A stretch of 64,000 nucleotides of DNA from assembly GCA_963747695.1 (NCBI GenBank), contig CAVVFV010000003.1:81296-145295 (forward strand), given 5' to 3'. The DNA is from Candidatus Falkowbacteria bacterium. Its GTDB lineage: Bacteria; Patescibacteriota; Patescibacteriia; Patescibacteriales; WJLG01. The translations under genes and the position numbers were made by a program. Of this stretch, positions 4,431 to 45,012 are shown one piece after another (within the stretch, counting starts at the first letter, position 1; each line of letters opens with the position of its first letter). The notes below the pieces were generated by a model that made no database searches, was not told where the DNA came from, and worked only from the letters and a program-made list of their open reading frames with translations.

Positions 4431-4524
4431 GAAGATTGGAATTTAGAATATGGAATATGGAATTTGGAATATAAATATATAGATATTATATATAATTTTA
4501 GAGCTTTTGACAAATAACAAAGAA

Positions 4525-4553: not shown

Positions 4554-4636
4554 AAAAACATTGAAAAAGCTTGCTGGAAGCTTTTTATTTTAGGAAATTC
4601 TAAATTCCATTTTCCAAATTCCAGCTTCCGAGATCC

Positions 4637-4720
4637 GGGCGTGTGGCGGAACTGGCAGACGCGCACGACTCAAAATCGTGTGGAAGCAATTCCATGAGAG
4701 TTCGATTCTCTCCATGCCCA
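4637..4720 (+). tRNA. tRNA-Leu(CAA), class II with long variable arm; no encoded CCA
   Basis: Hand fold: acceptor GGGCGTG/CATGCCC, anticodon arm CACGA-CTCAAAA-TCGTG, variable hairpin GGAA-GCAA-TTCC, T arm GAGAG-TTCGATT-CTCTC. Confidence 0.9.
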
Positions 4721-4726
4721 CAAAAG

Positions 4727-4760
4727 AAAAAGACCGGCTCTTTTGGCCGGTCTTTTTATT
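4727..4760. terminator. Intrinsic terminator hairpin after tRNA-Leu, usable in both directions
   Basis: AGACCGGC (4731-4738) pairs with GCCGGTCT (4746-4753). It is flanked by an A-run on one side and a T-run on the other. Confidence 0.75.
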
Positions 4761-4874
4761 TTGGCTTTGGAGAATCGAACGTGAGGGGTTTGGGGAACGG
4801 CAGTTCCCCACCGTTTCCGAGGGATGGTATTGGAAGGGGTGGAAACCCCTTCCAAAGAGGAGCGCCAGCGACGA
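4761..4874 (-). repeat. GC-rich hairpin module (copy E1) inserted between tRNA-Leu and a duplicate of its 3' end
   Basis: 4761-4780 is an imperfect inverted copy of the tRNA-Leu T-loop/acceptor 3' strand. Hairpins sit at 4792-4809 and 4832-4853. The reverse complement aligns over about 90 nt with 37905-37985. Confidence 0.7.
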
Positions 4875-4899
4875 TTCGATTTCTCTCCATGCCCACAAA
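4875..4899 (+). repeat. Direct repeat of the tRNA-Leu 3' end (T loop to discriminator plus 4 nt)
   Basis: TTCGATTTCTCTCCATGCCCACAAA here versus TTCGATTCTCTCCATGCCCACAAA at 4701-4724; the only difference is one extra T. Confidence 0.85.
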
Positions 4900-4902
4900 T
4901 AA

Positions 4903-4930
4903 AAAACTTCGGCGTCTAGCCGGAGTTTTT
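4903..4930 (+). terminator. Second intrinsic terminator, after the duplicated tRNA-Leu 3' end
   Basis: CTTCGGC pairs with GCCGGAG around loop GTCTA, followed by a T-run. Confidence 0.6.
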
Positions 4931-4957
4931 TAAATAAATAGAAAAAAATTCATTGTC

Positions 4958-7720: not shown

Positions 7721-10700
7721 CTATTTCGCGTCTACAACCTCGATTGAGTCGGAGAATTCTTTTTTAATGGCGCCGACCAGATTGTCATCGTTCCGCACCC
7801 GAAAACCGGCCTGAAAGATCACCGGTTCGTTATTGCGCGTTATCTTGAAGTAAACCAGGCTCGGACCGGTCGCCCCGGCGAGCAGCTCTTTCAAATGGGC
7901 CGCTTCAGTCGGATCAAGCTCGCGTTTAAAGATTAATTTCAAGGGCGGCGGCTGGATCCGCGGCGGCGGTTCGGCCGGCTGGGCATTGGGACGATACATT
8001 CCGTTGCCATTGCCGTTATTGCCATAACCGTTGAATTGCCTTTTGGCCTGCACTTCGATCTTTTTAAAATCATCGATTGATTCAGCCAGCCTGTCCAACG
8101 ACAAGACGGCGGCTTTGTCCACCAGCAATTTCACTTCCTGATCCTTATCGGAAATTTTTCCCTGCACCAAGACGACTTTGCCCTCCTGCCAAAGTTCAAC
8201 GGTTGATTCGTAGAGATTGGGAAACACTAAAAGCTCGGTTGAAGCGACCGCGTCTTCGATCTTGACGAACAGCATCGGTTTATTGCTCCGAGTGATGATC
8301 TTCTTGATCAGCGTGATCACGCCGGCGGCGCGAACCGCGTCTTCGTTCAAGTGGGATGCCAGGCTGTTGATCGGAACGATCAGCTCTCCCAGTTGTTTCT
8401 TAAAATCGTTGAAAGGATGAGCGGAAAGATAAAGTCCCAACAGTTCTTTCTCCCAGGATAATTTTTCCTGTTGGCCGACAGTCGCCGACTTATCCAGCTT
8501 GATCCTCCCGGGCATATTGTTGGTGGAATTGCCGAAAAGGCTCGATTGTTTAGAATCCCGATTGCGGCTGACTTCTTTATTGTATTCCAGAAGTGCTTCC
8601 ATATTGGCCAAAAAGAGGCCGCGGTCGCCGAATTGGTCGAGCGCGCCGCATTTCGTCAGAGATTCCAGAGATTTTTTATTCAAATCCTTGTCCACGATCC
8701 TTTCCAAAAAATCAAAAATATCCCGATATTTGCCGTTAGCTTTCCGCTCTTCGATAATCACATCAACGATATGGCCGCCGACATTCTTAATCGCGTTCAA
8801 ACCGAAGCGGATGAATTCTGCGCTGCTATTTTCATCCTTGACCACGGTGAACGAAGCGAAAGATTCGTTGACGTCCGGCGAAAGAACTTTGATCCCCATA
8901 TTGCGGCATTCTTCGATCTCGATGGCGATGCGATCGATGTCCTGCTGGTCCGAGGTCAACAAGGCAGCCATAAATTCCGCCGGATAATGAGCCTTGAGAT
9001 AGGCCGTTTGATAGCTGGTCATCGCGTAACAAGCGGCATGCGCGCGGCAAAAACCGTAACCGGCGAACGGCTCGATGAAAGAGAAAACCTGCTCGCCCAA
9101 TTCTTTGGGCACGCCGTTCTTGACGCAACCGTCAACGAATTTTTCTTTCTGTTCGGCGAGCAGCTTAGCGATCTTCTTGCCCATCGCTTTGCGCAAAACA
9201 TCGGCCTGACCCATGGTGAAGCCGGCCAGATCGCGGGAAATCTGCATCACCTGCTCCTGATAAACCGCCACGCCATAAGTTTTGTCCAGGATCGGTTTCA
9301 ATTTAGGATGAAGATATTTTACTTTTTTGGTGCCGTGTTTGCCGGCGATATAATCAGGGATCCACTCCATCGGTCCGGGACGGTAGAGCGCGCCCATCGC
9401 GATGATATCTTCAAACACGGTCGGTTTGAGATCTTTCAAATACCGCTTCATCCCCGAAGATTCGAACTGGAAGACGCCGGTGGTTTCGCCGTCTTGAAAC
9501 AATTTATAAGTCAATTTATCATCCAGCGGCAGCTGATCCATTTTCAAGTCGACGCCCCGGGTCCGTTTGATGATCTTCAACGACGATTCGATGATGGTCA
9601 AGTTCTTCAAACCCAAAAAATCCATTTTCAATAAACCCAGATCCTCGATCGGATGCAGCGAATATTGCGAAACCACGGTCAGGTCGGAAGTCGAAGCATA
9701 TTGGATCGGTACGTATTCGGTCAGCGGCTCTTTGGTGATCAAAACTCCGCAGGCGTGCGTCGAGGCATGGCGGGCGACACCTTCCAAGCGCAGCGCGTAA
9801 TCGATTATTTTTTTGGCATCCGGTTCCTTGTCATAGAGATCCCGGAATTCTTTGATATTTTCCAGCGCTTCGGAAAGGTCGGTGAACATCGGGATGGCTT
9901 TGGCTAATTTATCGCAAAAATCATAAGGGATATCCAGTACGCGGCCGACATCGCGCATTGAAGCGCGGGCGGCGATCGTTCCAAAAGTGATGATCTGCGA
10001 AACATGATCCTTGCCGTATTTTCCCTCGACGTAGCGAATTACGGCGTCGCGGCCGGTGTCAGCGAAATCCGTATCGATATCAGGCATGGAGATGCGTTCC
10101 GGATTCAAGAATCTTTCGAAAAGGAGGTCATGGACGATCGGATCGATATTAGTGATACCTAAGAGATAACAAACCAGCGAACCGGCGCCGGAGCCGCGGC
10201 CGGGACCGACAATGATCCCCGAATCTTTGGCCCAATTGATAAAATCGGCCACGATCAGAAAATAAGACGGCCAACCCATTTTTTTTATTACCGATATTTC
10301 ATAATCCAGCCGTTCTTTTCTCACCTTGTCCATTTCTTCGTAAATTTTGCCGTAACGTTTCCGGCAACCCTCATGGGCCAGATGTTCGAGATAAGAAATT
10401 CCATCAAAACCATCCGGCACAGGAAAAAACGGCAGCAGAACCTGTCCGAGAGCGATTTCAACATTGCACATCTCCGCAATCTTTATTGTATTGGCAGCGG
10501 CTTCCGGAATATCTTTAAATGCAGCGATCATTTCCTCGTTAGAACGCAAGGAAAAATCCGTACCCATCATATTCATCCGGTCTTCATCCTCGACTTTCTT
10601 TTTATTCTGCAGGCAAAGCAAAATGTCCTGCGCTTCGGCGTCATCCTTGCGGAAATAATGGACGTCATTGGTAGCAACCAGCGGAACATTCAATTCCTGG

Positions 10701-17064: not shown

Positions 17065-17132
17065 CCGGACCGGGTCGGTCGGGAGCATGGTGAGAGGCAA
17101 AAATTTGCTCCCCGCTCGTCGAGTCGTTCCGG
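17065..17132 (+). repeat. GC-rich hairpin block in the 5' region of the 17199 gene; possible partial member of the tRNA-linked module family
   Basis: GGGAGCA pairs with TGCTCCC. CGCTCGTCGAGTCGTTCC resembles CGCTCGTC...TCGTTCC at 37679-37708. Confidence 0.3.
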
Positions 17133-22571: not shown

Positions 22572-22758
22572 CTCCTCGGTTGAAATTTACTATATTTTAT
22601 AATACCGAGGAAAAAAAGTAAACAATTACGGGATTGACTGATTGATATATTTAGTTTATACTATTTACAAATCCAATTCGGATTTTATTTTATTTTTTCA
22701 GCCAGAGGCTGATCCGCCTTGGGCGGAAATTCTTAATTCTTAATTTGTAATTGATTTA

Positions 22759-22830
22759 GGTCCCTTCGTCTAACGGTTAGGACATCAGGTTCTCATCCTG
22801 AAAATAGGGGTTCGATTCCCCTAGGGACTA
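22759..22830 (+). tRNA. tRNA-Glu(CTC)
   Basis: Hand fold: acceptor GGTCCCT/AGGGACT, anticodon arm TCAGG-TTCTCAT-CCTGA, T arm AGGGG-TTCGATT-CCCCT. Confidence 0.9.
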
Positions 22831-22836
22831 CTAATT

Positions 22837-22865
22837 TAAAAACTCGGCCTTTCGCCGAGTTTTTA
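22837..22865 (+). terminator. Terminator after tRNA-Glu
   Basis: AAAAACTCGGC-CTTTC-GCCGAGTTTTT. Confidence 0.75.
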
Positions 22866-22870
22866 AATTA

Positions 22871-23034
22871 GTCATCTTCTATATTGGGAGTCGAACTGGT
22901 TGCGCGCGAGATATGAGCGCCGACGGAAGGAGGCGCGAATAATCGAGCGACGCTGACCATTCGGGGAATGGTCAGCGGGCAACCCCGGACAAGAGAGGCC
23001 GCCGCTTTTCCGGCGGCGGCCGAACACGACGACA
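22871..23034 (-). repeat. GC-rich hairpin module (copy E3) between tRNA-Glu and a duplicate of its 3' end
   Basis: Hairpins at 22952-22976 and 22998-23020. The reverse complement reads GCCGCCGGAAAAGCGGCGGCCTCTCTTGTCCGGGGT, versus GCCGCCGGAATGCGGCTCGCTCCCTTGTCCAGGGT at 37755-37789. A T-loop-like GGAGTCGAAC sits at 22888-22897. Confidence 0.65.
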
Positions 23035-23048
23035 CCCCTAGGGACTAC
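23035..23048 (+). repeat. Direct repeat of the tRNA-Glu 3' end
   Basis: CCCCTAGGGACTAC is identical to 22818-22831. Confidence 0.8.
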
Positions 23049-23056
23049 GGATAAAT

Positions 23057-23088
23057 AAAAATACTGACTTAATATGGTCAGTATTTTT
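23057..23088 (+). terminator. Second terminator, after the duplicated tRNA-Glu end
   Basis: ATACTGAC pairs with GTCAGTAT, followed by a T-run. Confidence 0.6.
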
Positions 23089-23114
23089 ATTTATATAAAC
23101 TTATTCTTAATACA

Positions 23115-24902: not shown

Positions 24903-24957
24903 AATATCCGGGCAAGAGTGAAGCGGGATTCCGCCGCCGCGCGGAAATCGCTGCTTG
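24903..24957 (+). repeat. Partial copy (E4) of the GC-rich module core plus hairpin
   Basis: ATCCGGGCAAGAGTG followed by a GC hairpin containing ATTCCG. Compare CCCCGGACAAGAGAG plus hairpin at 22983-23020, and the reverse complement of 37755-37789. Confidence 0.4.
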
Positions 24958-31166: not shown

Positions 31167-31205
31167 ATTCTTAATTCTTAATTCTTAATTCTTAATTCTT
31201 AATTC
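31167..31205. repeat. Tandem heptamer repeat (ATTCTTA), about 5.5 copies
   Basis: Read directly. It runs into the stop codon of the 31204-33342 gene. A shorter copy lies at 22728-22744. Confidence 0.85.
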
Positions 31206-37547: not shown

Positions 37548-37663
37548 ACGATTCCTCCGCTTCCATTGGATTGGGTTTATTATTAAAAAATGTGCTTTCC
37601 ACACCAAACATTAACCAGATAAATTATCATAATTAGCACTATTTTGTCAAATGATTTTCTTTC

Positions 37664-38003
37664 GCCATGGGCGGCCGACGCTCGTCCCGCCGCGGCGGGA
37701 TCGTTCCCTCGCGAACTTTGTCTTGCTTCCAACCAGCACACACCTCGGTCACTCGCCGCCGGAATGCGGCTCGCTCCCTTGTCCAGGGTCAGCACCAACG
37801 TGCCCCGGCACGTTGGCGATCGCTCAGCTGTTCGCCGCTCGTTCCCTCGCGGCTCTCGCTTCGCTCCTGACCAGCGCACAAAAATTTGAAGCTTCGCTTT
37901 GTAAGGGGCCTCCGCCCCTTCCAATACCATCCCCCGAAAACAGTGGGAAACTTACGTTTCCCAAACCCTTCCTAGTTCAAATCTTGTTGGGACCCGCGCA
38001 CCA
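37664..38003 (+). repeat. Composite GC-rich structured module (copy E2, the longest), ending in an inverted copy of the tRNA-Lys 3' end
   Basis: The region is open in several frames on both strands and clearly GC-richer than its flanks. Hairpins sit at 37755-37770, 37795-37816, 37903-37920 and 37945-37962. 37975-38003 equals the tRNA-Lys T-loop-to-CCA sequence with a 5-nt insertion. Confidence 0.7.
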
Positions 38004-38038
38004 ATAAAAAATACCGCTTTTGCGGTATTTTTTATTGG
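38001..38038. terminator. Perfect 17-bp palindromic terminator shared by tRNA-Lys and module E2
   Basis: CCAATAAAAAATACCGC-TTTT-GCGGTATTTTTTATTGG. Confidence 0.75.
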
Positions 38039-38111
38039 TGCGCCCAACAAGATTTGAACTTGTGACCTTCTCCTTAAAAGGGAGCTGCTCTACCAGCTGA
38101 GCTATGGGCGC
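38036..38111 (-). tRNA. tRNA-Lys(TTT) with encoded CCA
   Basis: The reverse complement folds as GCGCCCA-TA-GCTC-AGCTGGTA-GAGC-A-GCTCC-CTTTTAA-GGAGA-AGGTC-ACAAG-TTCAAAT-CTTGT-TGGGCGC-A-CCA. Confidence 0.9.
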
Positions 38112-38149
38112 GAACTTATTGATCAGATTTTACTTTTCTTATATTTTCA

Positions 38150-38226
38150 AGCGACACTACTCTACCCGCCTCGCTGAAGGCGGACCAGCTGCTTACCCCG
38201 CCCTTTTGGCGGGGAGCTATGGGCGC
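38150..38226 (-). pseudogene. Decayed copy of the tRNA-Lys 5' part, interrupted by two GC hairpins
   Basis: GAGCTATGGGCGC at 38214-38226 is identical to 38099-38111. The minus strand reads GCGCCCATAGCTC-[CCCCGCC..GGCGGGG]-..AGCTGGT-[CCGCC..GGCGG]-GTAGAG. No anticodon arm or T arm follows. Confidence 0.6.
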
Positions 38227-38299
38227 TCGACGATTTTAGATTGGCGATTTTCGATTTACGATTAAGTTTACTTGTTATTAATAATAACAAAAAAGGCGG

Positions 38300-38686
38300 A
38301 AAATAAAAACGCCTGCACCAGGCACGTTTTATTTAAGAAAATCATAACAAATAACCGGCAACTTGACAAGTGGGCGGGTAAAATTAAAGCCCGCGCGCAA
38401 TTACGCAATAAATGAAAAGGAACCCGGTAGAGTAAGGGTTCCTTGACGTAGAGATGATGAATTGGCAAAAGAGCGATTGTGATGAAGGTGCGAATTTTGA
38501 AAAAAACGAGCGAGGAAAAAGCGGCTCATCAGACACTTTAAAGAATGGAACAGAAAAATACGAACAATAACTGAAACGGAAACGGATCAGCGCAATACAA
38601 GGAACTGAACTGATCCAGCCTTAATACTCGAACTACCGCTCAACCCCTCGCTCGTTCAAAAAAGGTGCGCCGGATGAAGTGTCTAT
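38300..38686 (-). ncRNA. Candidate structured non-coding RNA or long tRNA-Lys leader, family unknown
   Basis: A promoter lies at 38687-38715. A long-range helix pairs GAACGAGCGAGG (38645-38656) with CCTCGCTCGTT (38506-38516), followed by a U-run. Further hairpins sit at 38419-38442 and 38598-38626. A terminal terminator lies at 38309-38335. There is no credible ORF. Confidence 0.45.
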
Positions 38687-38715
38687 ATTATACCTCGGTC
38701 GACCGATTAGTTCAA
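38687..38715 (-). promoter_or_regulatory. Near-consensus promoter (TTGAAC-17 nt-TATAAT) overlapping the msrA stop codon
   Basis: The minus strand reads cTTGAACtaatcggtcgaccgaggTATAATatagac. Confidence 0.6.
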
Positions 38716-44893: not shown

Positions 44894-44923
44894 TTGACTA
44901 TTGAACGTTCGTTCAACTATACT
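44894..44923 (+). promoter_or_regulatory. lexA promoter (TTGACT-18 nt-TATACT) with an embedded LexA (Cheo-type) box
   Basis: GAACGTTCGTTC at 44903-44914 fits GAAC-N4-GTTC and lies between the -35 and -10 elements. Confidence 0.7.
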
Positions 44924-44924
44924 T

Positions 44925-45012
44925 GAGGGGGAAACCCTTGGTCGGGTTTCCCCCTCAATACTCCCCCTTCCAAGGTGGCTCGTGGCGCGGAATGAATCCG
45001 CCGCCACTCACC
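44925..45012 (+). repeat. Two GC-rich hairpins in the lexA 5' UTR; possible partial member of the module family
   Basis: A 13-bp perfect stem pairs GAGGGGGAAACCC with GGGTTTCCCCCTC. The following CAATACTCCCCC resembles CCAATACCATCCC at 37921-37933. A second hairpin has a GGAATGAATCC centre. Confidence 0.35.

Follow-up and report, generated by a model that had tools for sequence, protein, structure and literature searches.

The described systems closest to the elements reported here are the insertions of P4-type integrases at tRNA genes with their cis-mobilisable element (CIME)-like remnants, the repetitive extragenic palindromic (REP) repeats of bacteria, including bacterial interspersed mosaic elements (BIMEs) and REPINs, bacterial MITEs (miniature transposable elements with inverted repeats) and the attC sites of integrons. 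Genomes of the candidate phyla radiation (CPR, Patescibacteria) are very small and are regarded as containing little mobile DNA. In a 64,000-nucleotide stretch of a Candidatus Falkowbacteria bacterium genome (contig CAVVFV010000003.1; the whole stretch is called the window here), inserts lie at the 3' ends of tRNA-Leu (E1), tRNA-Lys (E2) and tRNA-Glu (E3). They belong to a Patescibacteria family of non-coding modules that are tied to tRNA gene 3' ends, sit within a triplication of the tRNA tail and are variably present between genomes. In each unit the 3' part of the intact tRNA gene (A) is accompanied by an inverted copy (B') and a direct copy (C).

With P4-type integration and CIME-like remnants the units share an intact tRNA gene, an insert between direct copies of the tRNA tail, and presence or absence between relatives. 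Unlike those systems, however, the inserts measure 110–340 bp, have no integrase nearby, include a third, inverted tail copy, place one interior family at many tRNAs and show a shared 1-nt insertion in C. REP, BIME and REPIN repeats are likewise short, GC-rich, extragenic, hairpin-forming, mosaic and non-coding, with substitutions that preserve palindromes, but these repeats, which are mobilised by REP-associated tyrosine transposases (RAYTs), are not linked to tRNAs and reach hundreds of copies per genome against few here; the present modules, moreover, pack several hairpins into 80–140 nt and are bracketed by target-derived repeats. Bacterial MITEs (Correia/CREE, RUP, ERIC, the Rickettsia palindromic elements) resemble them in being non-autonomous, structured, interspersed and variable between strains. 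The inverted repeats of MITEs are owned by the element and their target duplications measure 2–10 bp, whereas here the arms copy the local target (12–36 nt) and the direct repeat is 14–27 nt long.

Integron attC sites may offer a parallel in shape, one that serves as a lead only. They too are imperfect palindromes of about 60–140 nt bounded by ...AAC/GTT..., with an extrahelical base (the counterpart of which would be the extra T in C), a variable tip and a strand-specific fold, and the crossover expected at G|TT would fall at the start of B' and C. The attC R''/R' consensus is RYYYAAC...GTTRRRY; against this consensus ATCGAAC...GTTCGAT fits at 6/7 positions on each side, with one bulged T in C. 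The T-loop motif GTTCGAW, however, breaks GTTRRRY at position 4, and no intI gene, attI site or gene cassettes were found in the window or at the loci. Fungal mitochondrial GC clusters and double-hairpin elements are similarly GC-rich hairpins in an AT-rich background that nest, flank RNA genes and are non-coding, but they belong to another lineage, have other sequences and lack the triplication of the tRNA tail. Template switching with inverted triplication (duplication–inverted triplication–duplication, DUP-TRP/INV-DUP) also yields a sense–antisense–sense order around a pre-existing palindrome, with arms kept complementary by paired changes; it is a mutational process and not an element, however, and leaves unexplained a 95%-conserved interior shared between genomes.

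Each unit holds the tRNA tail in three copies

A sense–antisense–sense triplication of the tRNA tail defines each unit. In the orientation of the tRNA, the order is the intact tRNA gene with A, a palindromic terminator (term1), B', the module, C and, often, a second terminator. B' always ends at the T-loop boundary, position 53/54, and C starts at T54; in all copies of one interior family, M1, and at any tRNA, the T-loop of C is followed by one additional T, and G53 is replaced by A. A and B' form a first hairpin with the terminator at its tip, and B' and C a second with the module at its tip. The module ends, GTTCGATTC and GTTCAAATC, are copies of the T-loop of the adjacent tRNA. An initial annotation, made from the letters of the window, had seen the modules but missed the tRNA-tail brackets, which change the reading of the module ends it took as conserved.

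Read on the strand convergent with the tRNA, the first part of an M1 unit is C', which runs antisense to the 3' end of the local tRNA and extends from a few bases of trailer to the T-loop. There follow TCGTCGCTGNCGCTCCT, CTTTGGAAGGGG, hairpin 1, CCCCTTCCAATACCATCCC, hairpin 2 and AAACCCCTC, and then B (the sense T-loop and tail, always starting at G53), the palindromic terminator and the intact tRNA in antisense. Pairing of C' with B places the M1 module at the tip of a hairpin with arms derived from the tRNA.

The same architecture was found at ten tRNA loci in at least six genomes (Leu, Glu, Lys, Ser(UGA), Arg(CCG) twice, Arg(GCG), Leu in L091, Leu in L096 and Lys in L025; sequences from other genomes carry L numbers). 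Scripted scoring gave inverted-copy scores of 13–25.5 at all ten, compared with 6–9.5 at empty or unrelated tRNAs, and direct-copy scores of 12.5–24 at most of them (19–24 score units at the Ser and Arg loci), compared with 7–7.5 at tRNAs without an element. The exceptions in the direct copy are L083b, whose C is just 14 nt long, and L025 and L096, which have no scored direct copy. The direct repeats that flank the inserts, 14–27 nt in length, run from the T-loop to a few bases beyond the tRNA end. Arms differ between copies, each matching its local tRNA, and the terminators are too diverged to mark either A with term1 or C with the second terminator as the native tail.

The units at tRNA-Leu and tRNA-Glu, and the genes that anchor them, are as follows.

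4637–4721, plus strand: tRNA-Leu(CAA), anchor of E1 (ARAGORN, Rfam)
4722–4900, plus strand: E1 unit (19-nt direct repeat; covariance model R1, 134 bits; fold z = -4.7 on the plus strand)
22759–22831, plus strand: tRNA-Glu(CUC), anchor of E3 (ARAGORN, Rfam)
22832–23048, plus strand: E3 unit (14-nt direct repeat; M2 alignments; orthologous site empty in L105)

Within E1, term1 (4722–4765) is followed by B' GGAGAATCGAAC (4769–4780), M1 (4781–4875) and C TTCGATTTCTCTCCATGCCCACAAA (4876–4900), with a second terminator at about 4900–4935. The exact 19-mer TTCTCTCCATGCCCACAAA stands at 4706–4724, in tRNA-Leu, and again at 4881–4899, each time followed by its own hairpin and T-run. E3 has the same parts: term1 (22832–22872), B' GGGAGTCGAAC (22887–22897), a module of the second interior family, M2 (22898–23034), C (23035–23048) and a second terminator at about 23052–23097. 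Its C, CCCCTAGGGACTAC, is the 14-nt direct repeat, the other copy of which lies at 22818–22831 in tRNA-Glu.

The composite at tRNA-Lys

M1, shared with E1, and M2, shared with E3, both occur in E2, which is therefore a composite, a stack of at least two modules with M1 next to the tRNA, then M2 and then a fragment. The initial annotation placed the feature at 37752–37985; the feature is real but was drawn too small, the composite spanning about 37663–38003, and the mosaic it described arises from this stacking of units.

37623–37650, minus strand: TTGACA-16-GATAAT, a promoter-like site belonging to the argininosuccinate synthase gene and the composite's outer limit (promoter scan; Pfam for the gene)
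37663–37737, plus strand: probable further decayed copy of the tRNA-Lys 3' end (37720–37737) and probable partial third unit, the distal end of E2 (13-nt repeat; the remainder judged by eye)
37753–37865, plus strand: M2 unit (alignments to E3 and to the L047 M2 exceed all 500 shuffles)
37874–37890, plus strand: C' of the M1 unit, GCGCACAAAAATTTGAA against GCGCCCAACAAGATTTGAA, where the 3' end of tRNA-Lys is copied in antisense and has decayed (direct-copy score 12.5; by eye)
37897–37974, plus strand: M1 core, with hairpin 1 (about 37902–37923), linker CCAATACCATCCCCCGAAAAC and hairpin 2 (37945–37962) (85% to E1; R1 98.8 bits)
37975–38003, plus strand: B, an inverted copy of tRNA-Lys from T-loop to CCA, GTTCAAATCTTGTTGGG[ACCCG]CGCACCA, facing the tRNA across term1 (by sequence; inverted-copy score 25.5 against a background of 6–9)
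38004–38035, no strand assigned: term1, a perfect palindromic, bidirectional terminator-like hairpin, ATAAAAAATACCGC TTTT GCGGTATTTTTTAT (by sequence)
38036–38111, minus strand: tRNA-Lys(UUU), intact, with encoded CCA, anchor of E2 (ARAGORN; Rfam tRNA 72.1 bits)

Term1 forms the centre of a long palindrome made by the tRNA-Lys 3' end and its inverted copy. The C' at 37874–37890 pairs with B and closes M1, the core of which, folded on both strands, folds better on the opposite (tRNA-sense) one. M2 contains the hairpin GCCGCCGGAATGCGGC (37755–37770), the block CTCCCTTGTCCAGGGT, a hairpin at 37796–37815 and the block GGCGATCGCTCAGCTGTTCGC, while the 13-nt repeat that marks the partial third unit, TCGTTCCCTCGCG, occurs at 37701 and 37839.

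On the other side of the tRNA gene, 48 nt upstream, the minus strand carries positions 1 to about 24 of tRNA-Lys as a 5' fragment (38160–38226). Two GC-rich hairpins, CCCGCCAAAAGGGCGGGG and CCGCCTTCAGCGAGGCGG, occupy its D-arm, and it holds a 13-nt exact repeat, GAGCTATGGGCGC; tRNA genes here thus also bear partial 5' duplications colonised by hairpins. The non-coding gap that runs from tRNA-Lys to an msrA-like gene (38112–38711, about 600 nt) is unusually long and has several hairpins and no Rfam match at the gathering threshold.

Two interior families and a dispersed relative

The interiors fall into two families, M1 (E1 and the tRNA-proximal part of E2) and M2 (E3 and the middle of E2). The letters quoted earlier for 37900–37985 and for the reverse complement of E1 are identical to the window sequence, and the alignment drawn between them by eye is recovered by BLAST (4786–4857 against 37968–37897, 72 nt, 84.7% identity, E = 3.5e-10). 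The paired stem substitutions reported from it are real: hairpin 1 has GGGGC/GCCCC in one copy and GGGGT/ACCCC in the other, and hairpin 2 GGGAAAC/GTTTCCC and GGGGAAC/GTTCCCC, with a third variant of the latter stem, GGGAACC/GGTTCCC, in L011.

The alignment of E2 with E3 also stands. Smith–Waterman comparison of 37655–37865 with the reverse complement of E3 covers about 100 nt with a score of 41, where shuffled sequences give 20.1 ± 2.9 and 0/500 reach 41; BLAST with a short word size, run with the three loci against the window, does not report this similarity at E ≤ 1. The C-rich-loop hairpins noted by eye exist at 37796–37815 (E2) and 22952–22976 (E3). A third M2 member, L047 735–880, aligns with the two window copies with scores of 42 and 65, and two traits recur in all three, GCGAATAATCGAGCGACGC as a block and a GCCGCCG hairpin preceded by ACCCYGGRCAAGRGAG. 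The L047 M2 copy is an orphan, flanked by tail copies of tRNA-Ser(GCU), with an apparent decayed tRNA 3' end before it. Chance similarity of the copies is effectively excluded.

A covariance model, R1, was built from eight M1 copies. This search, which the initial annotation had proposed, recovered the two M1 copies of the window and no further M1 in its 64 kb. Shorter look-alikes had also been listed away from tRNAs. Those at 24903–24957 and 17065–17132 gave no match with BLAST or the covariance model, and only that at 44925–45012 is supported.

44923–44973, plus strand: lexA leader, with a related single module made of a hairpin and then AATACTCCCCC, no tRNA nearby (90% over 51 nt to L025 2608–2658; weak R1 match, E = 3.4)

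The 17-mer CCCCTCAATACTCCCCC is common to this module and to the M1 variant of L091, and by its sequence the module looks like a dispersed, tRNA-independent cousin of M1. Its hairpin, followed by AATACTCCCCCTTCCAA, comes directly after a LexA-box-like GAACGTTCGTTC at about 44905–44916. The L025 copy points the opposite way relative to the next gene.

Gain, loss and apparent exchange between genomes

When an exact 18-mer was sought in 185,579 species genomes (a single genome for each species), 22 matches were due to chance and one was a true copy, in L011, a Patescibacteria metagenome-assembled genome (MAG). With a 19-nt degenerate pattern, metagenome contigs yielded three more loci with four copies (L047, L077 and L083 twice), which share the anatomy described above and lie beside tRNA-Ser(UGA), tRNA-Arg(CCG) and tRNA-Arg(GCG). 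R1 also picked up a truncated copy in L025, behind the syntenic tRNA-Lys (E = 0.0012). Orthologous loci in relatives were located through homologues of ParA and fmt, and the state of each site was as follows.

Leu(CAA), AI-2E transporter/ParA: filled in the window; filled in L091 (ParA 88%), with identical arms and a diverged M1 variant
Leu(CAA) in L096 (ParA 79%): a decayed insert of another type
Leu(CAA) in L094 and L095 (ParA 84%): empty, the tRNA and one terminator
Glu(CUC): filled in the window (M2); empty in L105 (fmt 82%, tRNA identical)
Arg(GCG): filled in L083; empty in L077
Lys(UUU): M1, M2 and a fragment in the window; a truncated copy in L025

Units are gained and lost between related genomes, and they nest and stack. 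Their interiors, furthermore, resemble one another across genomes and tRNA species far beyond what orthology would lead one to expect: that of E1 shares 96% identity with L047 (at a Ser tRNA) and 95% with L077 (at an Arg tRNA), but only 63% with the orthologous copy in L091, even though protein identity to the window is 55–90% for L091 and just 27–42% for the matches of L077. In L083 two copies stand 260 nt apart at two different Arg tRNAs, with a similar terminator. Both hold the same 20-nt hairpin nested inside the loop of hairpin 1, and yet the arms of each fit its own tRNA; the pair reflects either copying in which the arms were templated anew or conversion of one neighbouring copy by the other. 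Copies that are decayed by GC-to-AT changes or shortened, with the tRNA unaffected, were seen in L025, L096 and L083 (L083a). The more distant ArgG relatives L086, L087 and L089 are non-syntenic, with no tRNA present.

The L025 contig also has about 1.5 kb of non-coding DNA between dnaB and tRNA-Lys (8216–9700) in an otherwise streamlined genome, with a GC-rich structured segment and terminator at about 9470–9570. In L003, from an Acidobacteria MAG, the exact M1 19-mer CCCCTTCCAATACCATCCC occurs within 1566–1665, 3 nt after a tRNA-Val and upstream of a P4-type-integrase-like gene. This match has the opposite orientation relative to the tRNA and no further similarity, and is probably due to chance.

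Fold and strand

The tRNA-sense strand is more stable than the opposite strand by 4.9–12.8 kcal/mol in each of the seven copies tested. E1, for example, folds at -59.1 kcal/mol (z = -4.7) on the tRNA-sense strand and at -47.4 kcal/mol (z = -2.2) on the other; that both beat shuffled sequences is due to the hairpins. In a four-helix model of the tRNA-sense strand 91.8% of cells pair, against 45–62% with slid partners, and seven pairs are changed on both sides, in line with the earlier description of the inserts as hairpin-rich, with pairing maintained despite changes. An 8-bp middle helix, ACCGUUUC/GGGAUGGU, is 95% paired across copies, one-sided changes keeping the pairing, and because it includes 3–4 G.U pairs it cannot form on the other strand. 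RNAalifold favours an alternative in which hairpin 2 is extended using bases of the middle helix.

The covariation of the modules is suggestive only. The eight copies in R1 amount to an effective sequence number of 1.05, so that hairpin covariation cannot separate selection on RNA from maintenance of a DNA palindrome, and covariation in the closing helix arises from copying of the local tRNA and not from selection on pairing. The initial annotation had argued from conserved segments and covarying stems for selection on RNA or single-stranded DNA structure rather than on protein. The non-coding, structured character of the inserts survives this scrutiny; the closing-helix part of the argument does not.

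A terminator lies between module and tRNA in every copy, and a scan of the E2 region, the sole region scanned, found no promoter-like site for the modules on either strand. All M1 copies (9/9) share one orientation relative to the tRNA, which led us to reject an invertible segment with B' and C as inversion sites. An orientation set by replication was likewise rejected: the anchoring tRNAs occur on both strands, yet the sign of the GC skew is the same throughout the window, so that orientation follows the tRNA. The skew is negative nearly throughout positions 1–64000, turning slightly positive only in 24–28 kb, so that the minus strand is the leading one, in agreement with most genes lying on it. 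The genes parA and parB lie at 2.7–4.4 kb, and tRNA-Leu and tRNA-Glu are head-on to replication.

Searches for known families and enzymes

A scan of the whole window with the Rfam 15 families (tmRNA, RNase P, SRP, 6S, riboswitches, ribozymes, group I/II introns, YrlA and others) at gathering threshold found the four tRNAs only, in agreement with the initial annotation, in which no known family was recognised, and permissive scans of the three loci returned sub-threshold terminator-like noise only. ARAGORN found no tRNA or tmRNA gene inside E1, E2 or E3, the T-loop-like ends being partial copies of the neighbouring tRNA. Pfam and NCBIfam searches of about 60 window open reading frames (ORFs), all of them housekeeping or unknown, detected no integrase, transposase, RAYT, TnpA/TnpB or reverse transcriptase (RT). 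For RAYT (Y1 HUH, PF01797) the search extended to these window ORFs, and not to the other ~100 kb of the contig or the remainder of the genome. No tyrosine or serine recombinase was present among the called or scanned neighbours at the window, L025, L091, L094 and L096 loci, and the genes next to the elements outside the window are ordinary ones as well. Exact-pattern scans of IMG/VR gave chance matches only, E2 had no blastn match among INPHARED phages or PLSDB plasmids, and full-text literature searches found no description of such elements.

Several known classes could be set aside on these and related grounds. REP/BIME-REPIN repeats were rejected by copy number, R1 finding two M1 copies in 64 kb, both beside tRNAs; the REP/BIME comparison of the initial annotation is an analogy of style only, given also that REPs are not tRNA-linked and that no RAYT or TnpA was found among the scanned window ORFs. 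MITEs were rejected by their terminal repeats, as the arms here vary and fit the local tRNA and the direct repeats are 14–27 nt, although one MITE-like trait, presence or absence at orthologous sites, does occur (L094/L095, L105 and L077 empty). An integrase-type trait is present too, in that tRNA 3' direct repeats flank the insert (19 nt at Leu, 14 nt at Glu) and the tRNA is regenerated. An origin from IS200/IS605 elements (PATE, omega-RNA) has no TnpA or TnpB/IscB Pfam match and no Rfam match behind it, and for a retron non-coding RNA no RT gene was found among the scanned window ORFs, though a closing helix exists. In tRNA-primed reverse transcription C' would be the primer-binding site, but the copies include genomic trailer bases and terminator and not CCA. 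Group I introns were excluded by uninterrupted tRNAs and no Intron_gpI match; those of Patescibacteria tRNAs sit in the anticodon loop, at position 35/36 (PMC13011429).

Interpretation of the modules

Taken together, the tRNA-tail architecture and the insertion and deletion behaviour point to miniature mobile or integrative elements rather than to a REP/BIME-like repeat. We favour the reading that the modules insert at the level of DNA, as non-autonomous elements associated with the 3' ends of tRNA genes, with a probability of roughly 0.55. A trans-acting site-specific recombinase could place them at the G53/T54 boundary, by analogy using the T-loop-to-3'-end sublocation of P4-type integrases, or replication could place them by switching templates at the palindrome of the terminator. 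Homologous recombination between copies would afterwards swap the interiors, the arms would be kept matched to the local tRNA through correction of imperfect palindromes, and stacking might follow because C still holds a T-loop target. Stem covariation would mostly reflect hairpin and palindrome maintenance. More tentatively, the modules may represent an undescribed class of tRNA-gene-targeting miniature elements in CPR bacteria, the insertion of which would rebuild an inverted and a direct copy of the target tail at each new site. A possible route would take the folded B'-module-C as an attC-like single-stranded site with crossover at G53|T54; another would be fold-back synthesis primed by the terminator hairpin. 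The most conserved sequence in any genome would then be a universal landing pad, and the elements would spread between distant Patescibacteria.

Several observations weigh against insertion elements. No mobilising enzyme was found in the ~60 window ORFs and no autonomous relative in viral, phage or plasmid collections, and copy number is low (two M1 copies in 64 kb). A recombinase model would predict an element-derived A, and hence chimeric tRNAs on moves between tRNA species, with arm correction needed as a rescue. The arms of E1 and L091 are identical although the interiors have diverged, as selection rather than neutrality could produce. The middle helix forms only on the tRNA-sense strand, its G.U pairs kept by one-sided changes, as an RNA function predicts, and the likeness of L083a and L083b could be neighbour gene conversion and not transposition.

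Some of these observations would suit the main rival reading, a functional structured RNA on the tRNA-sense strand, a 3' extension of the tRNA transcript produced by read-through of the first terminator, with the module capping a helix in which B' pairs with the spare tRNA tail C. Its role might be in the processing of tRNA 3' ends or in tRNA stability, or that of a sponge or decoy drawing off enzymes of the T-loop and acceptor end, and gain and loss would be the turnover of a dispensable accessory RNA. The better folding of that strand in 7/7 copies, the strand-specific middle helix, the retention of arms and hairpin layout between the orthologous E1 and L091 at 63% interior identity, and the second terminators after C in E1 and E3 all speak for it. 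We nevertheless consider it somewhat unlikely, since a strong intrinsic terminator (hairpin and T-run) separates tRNA from module in every copy, no promoter-like site was found in the E2 region, and a co-transcribed B' would form a duplex with the 3' half of the tRNA itself, of up to about 45 bp. The lexA-leader module and its L025 homologue, moreover, are oppositely oriented relative to the neighbouring gene, the copies in L025, L096 and L083a are decayed or shortened at no consequence for the tRNA, and the covariation comes from about 4 effectively independent sequences.

An origin as scars or satellites of integrase integration, with A the element-borne tail (attL), C the displaced native tail (attR) and the modules leftover arm regions of larger islands or phages after internal deletion, would account for the intact tRNA and for direct repeats of 14–27 bp from the T-loop to just past the tRNA end. 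The T-loop sublocation, reportedly set out by Williams in 2002, is said to be classic for P4-type tyrosine integrases, and the trailer after C in E3 (AAATAAAAA) resembles that of the empty L105 site. This origin is nonetheless improbable: the units measure 110–220 bp, with no integrase gene or fragment beside any of the ten loci and no match in viral, phage or plasmid collections; one interior occurs at six tRNA identities with arms that fit each, so that six integrase specificities would be needed; a displaced native tail would have neither the extra T nor the A for G53 found in all M1-type C copies; C in L083b is merely 14 nt; and the inverted copy B' is foreign to an att scar. That the module encodes a small protein is scarcely credible. 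ORFs at 37651–38007 (plus strand) and 4590–4898 (minus strand) overlap it, and one frame anchored at CTTTG is open in 7/8 copies, but the overlapping ORFs have no Pfam match, the two long ORFs use different frames of the module and that of E1 continues through the tRNA antisense, frame-breaking indels of 20 nt and 1 nt separate the copies, the shared frame meets a stop in L091 and substitutions occur as complementary pairs. The earlier interpretation is partly supported, in that the inserts are non-coding, structured and uncatalogued.

Modules occur at three of the four tRNA genes of the window, which confirms the tRNA linkage noted in the initial annotation, and in relatives they have been gained, lost and stacked and apparently exchanged from genome to genome. 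If the T-loop boundary is targeted without an enzyme of the element's own, either host or trans-acting recombination of an unrecognised kind or a replication-based building and moving of structured DNA would be at work, and the modules could provide a ready marker for horizontal exchange among uncultured CPR lineages. Were the RNA explanation true instead, they would be a new class of tRNA-linked structured RNA. Partial tRNA copies and spurious ORFs of 80–120 amino acids may in any event mislead gene callers, tRNA counts and predictors of att sites or prophages in CPR MAGs.

Further features near the tRNA genes

A third conserved GC-rich hairpin family, GGGCGGGCAAAAAGGAAGGGGTTGGGGGGAA.GAATTTTTGCCCGCCC, lies near M1 or M2 copies in two different Patescibacteria contigs, L011 (about 655–715) and L047 (about 495–545). 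Upstream of the tRNA-Leu of L096 (2762–2814) the first 15 nt of the gene are duplicated, with the hairpin TCCGCCTTGGGCGGA and 23 nt between the copies; the identical 15-nt hairpin stands upstream of tRNA-Glu in the window (22713–22727) and is absent at the orthologous Glu locus of L105. AT-rich tandem repeats of AATTCTT occur upstream of tRNA-Glu (22728–22745) and again at 31167–31204, and GGAATAT-type repeats flank the promoter region of tRNA-Leu at 4437–4470 and 4595–4623.

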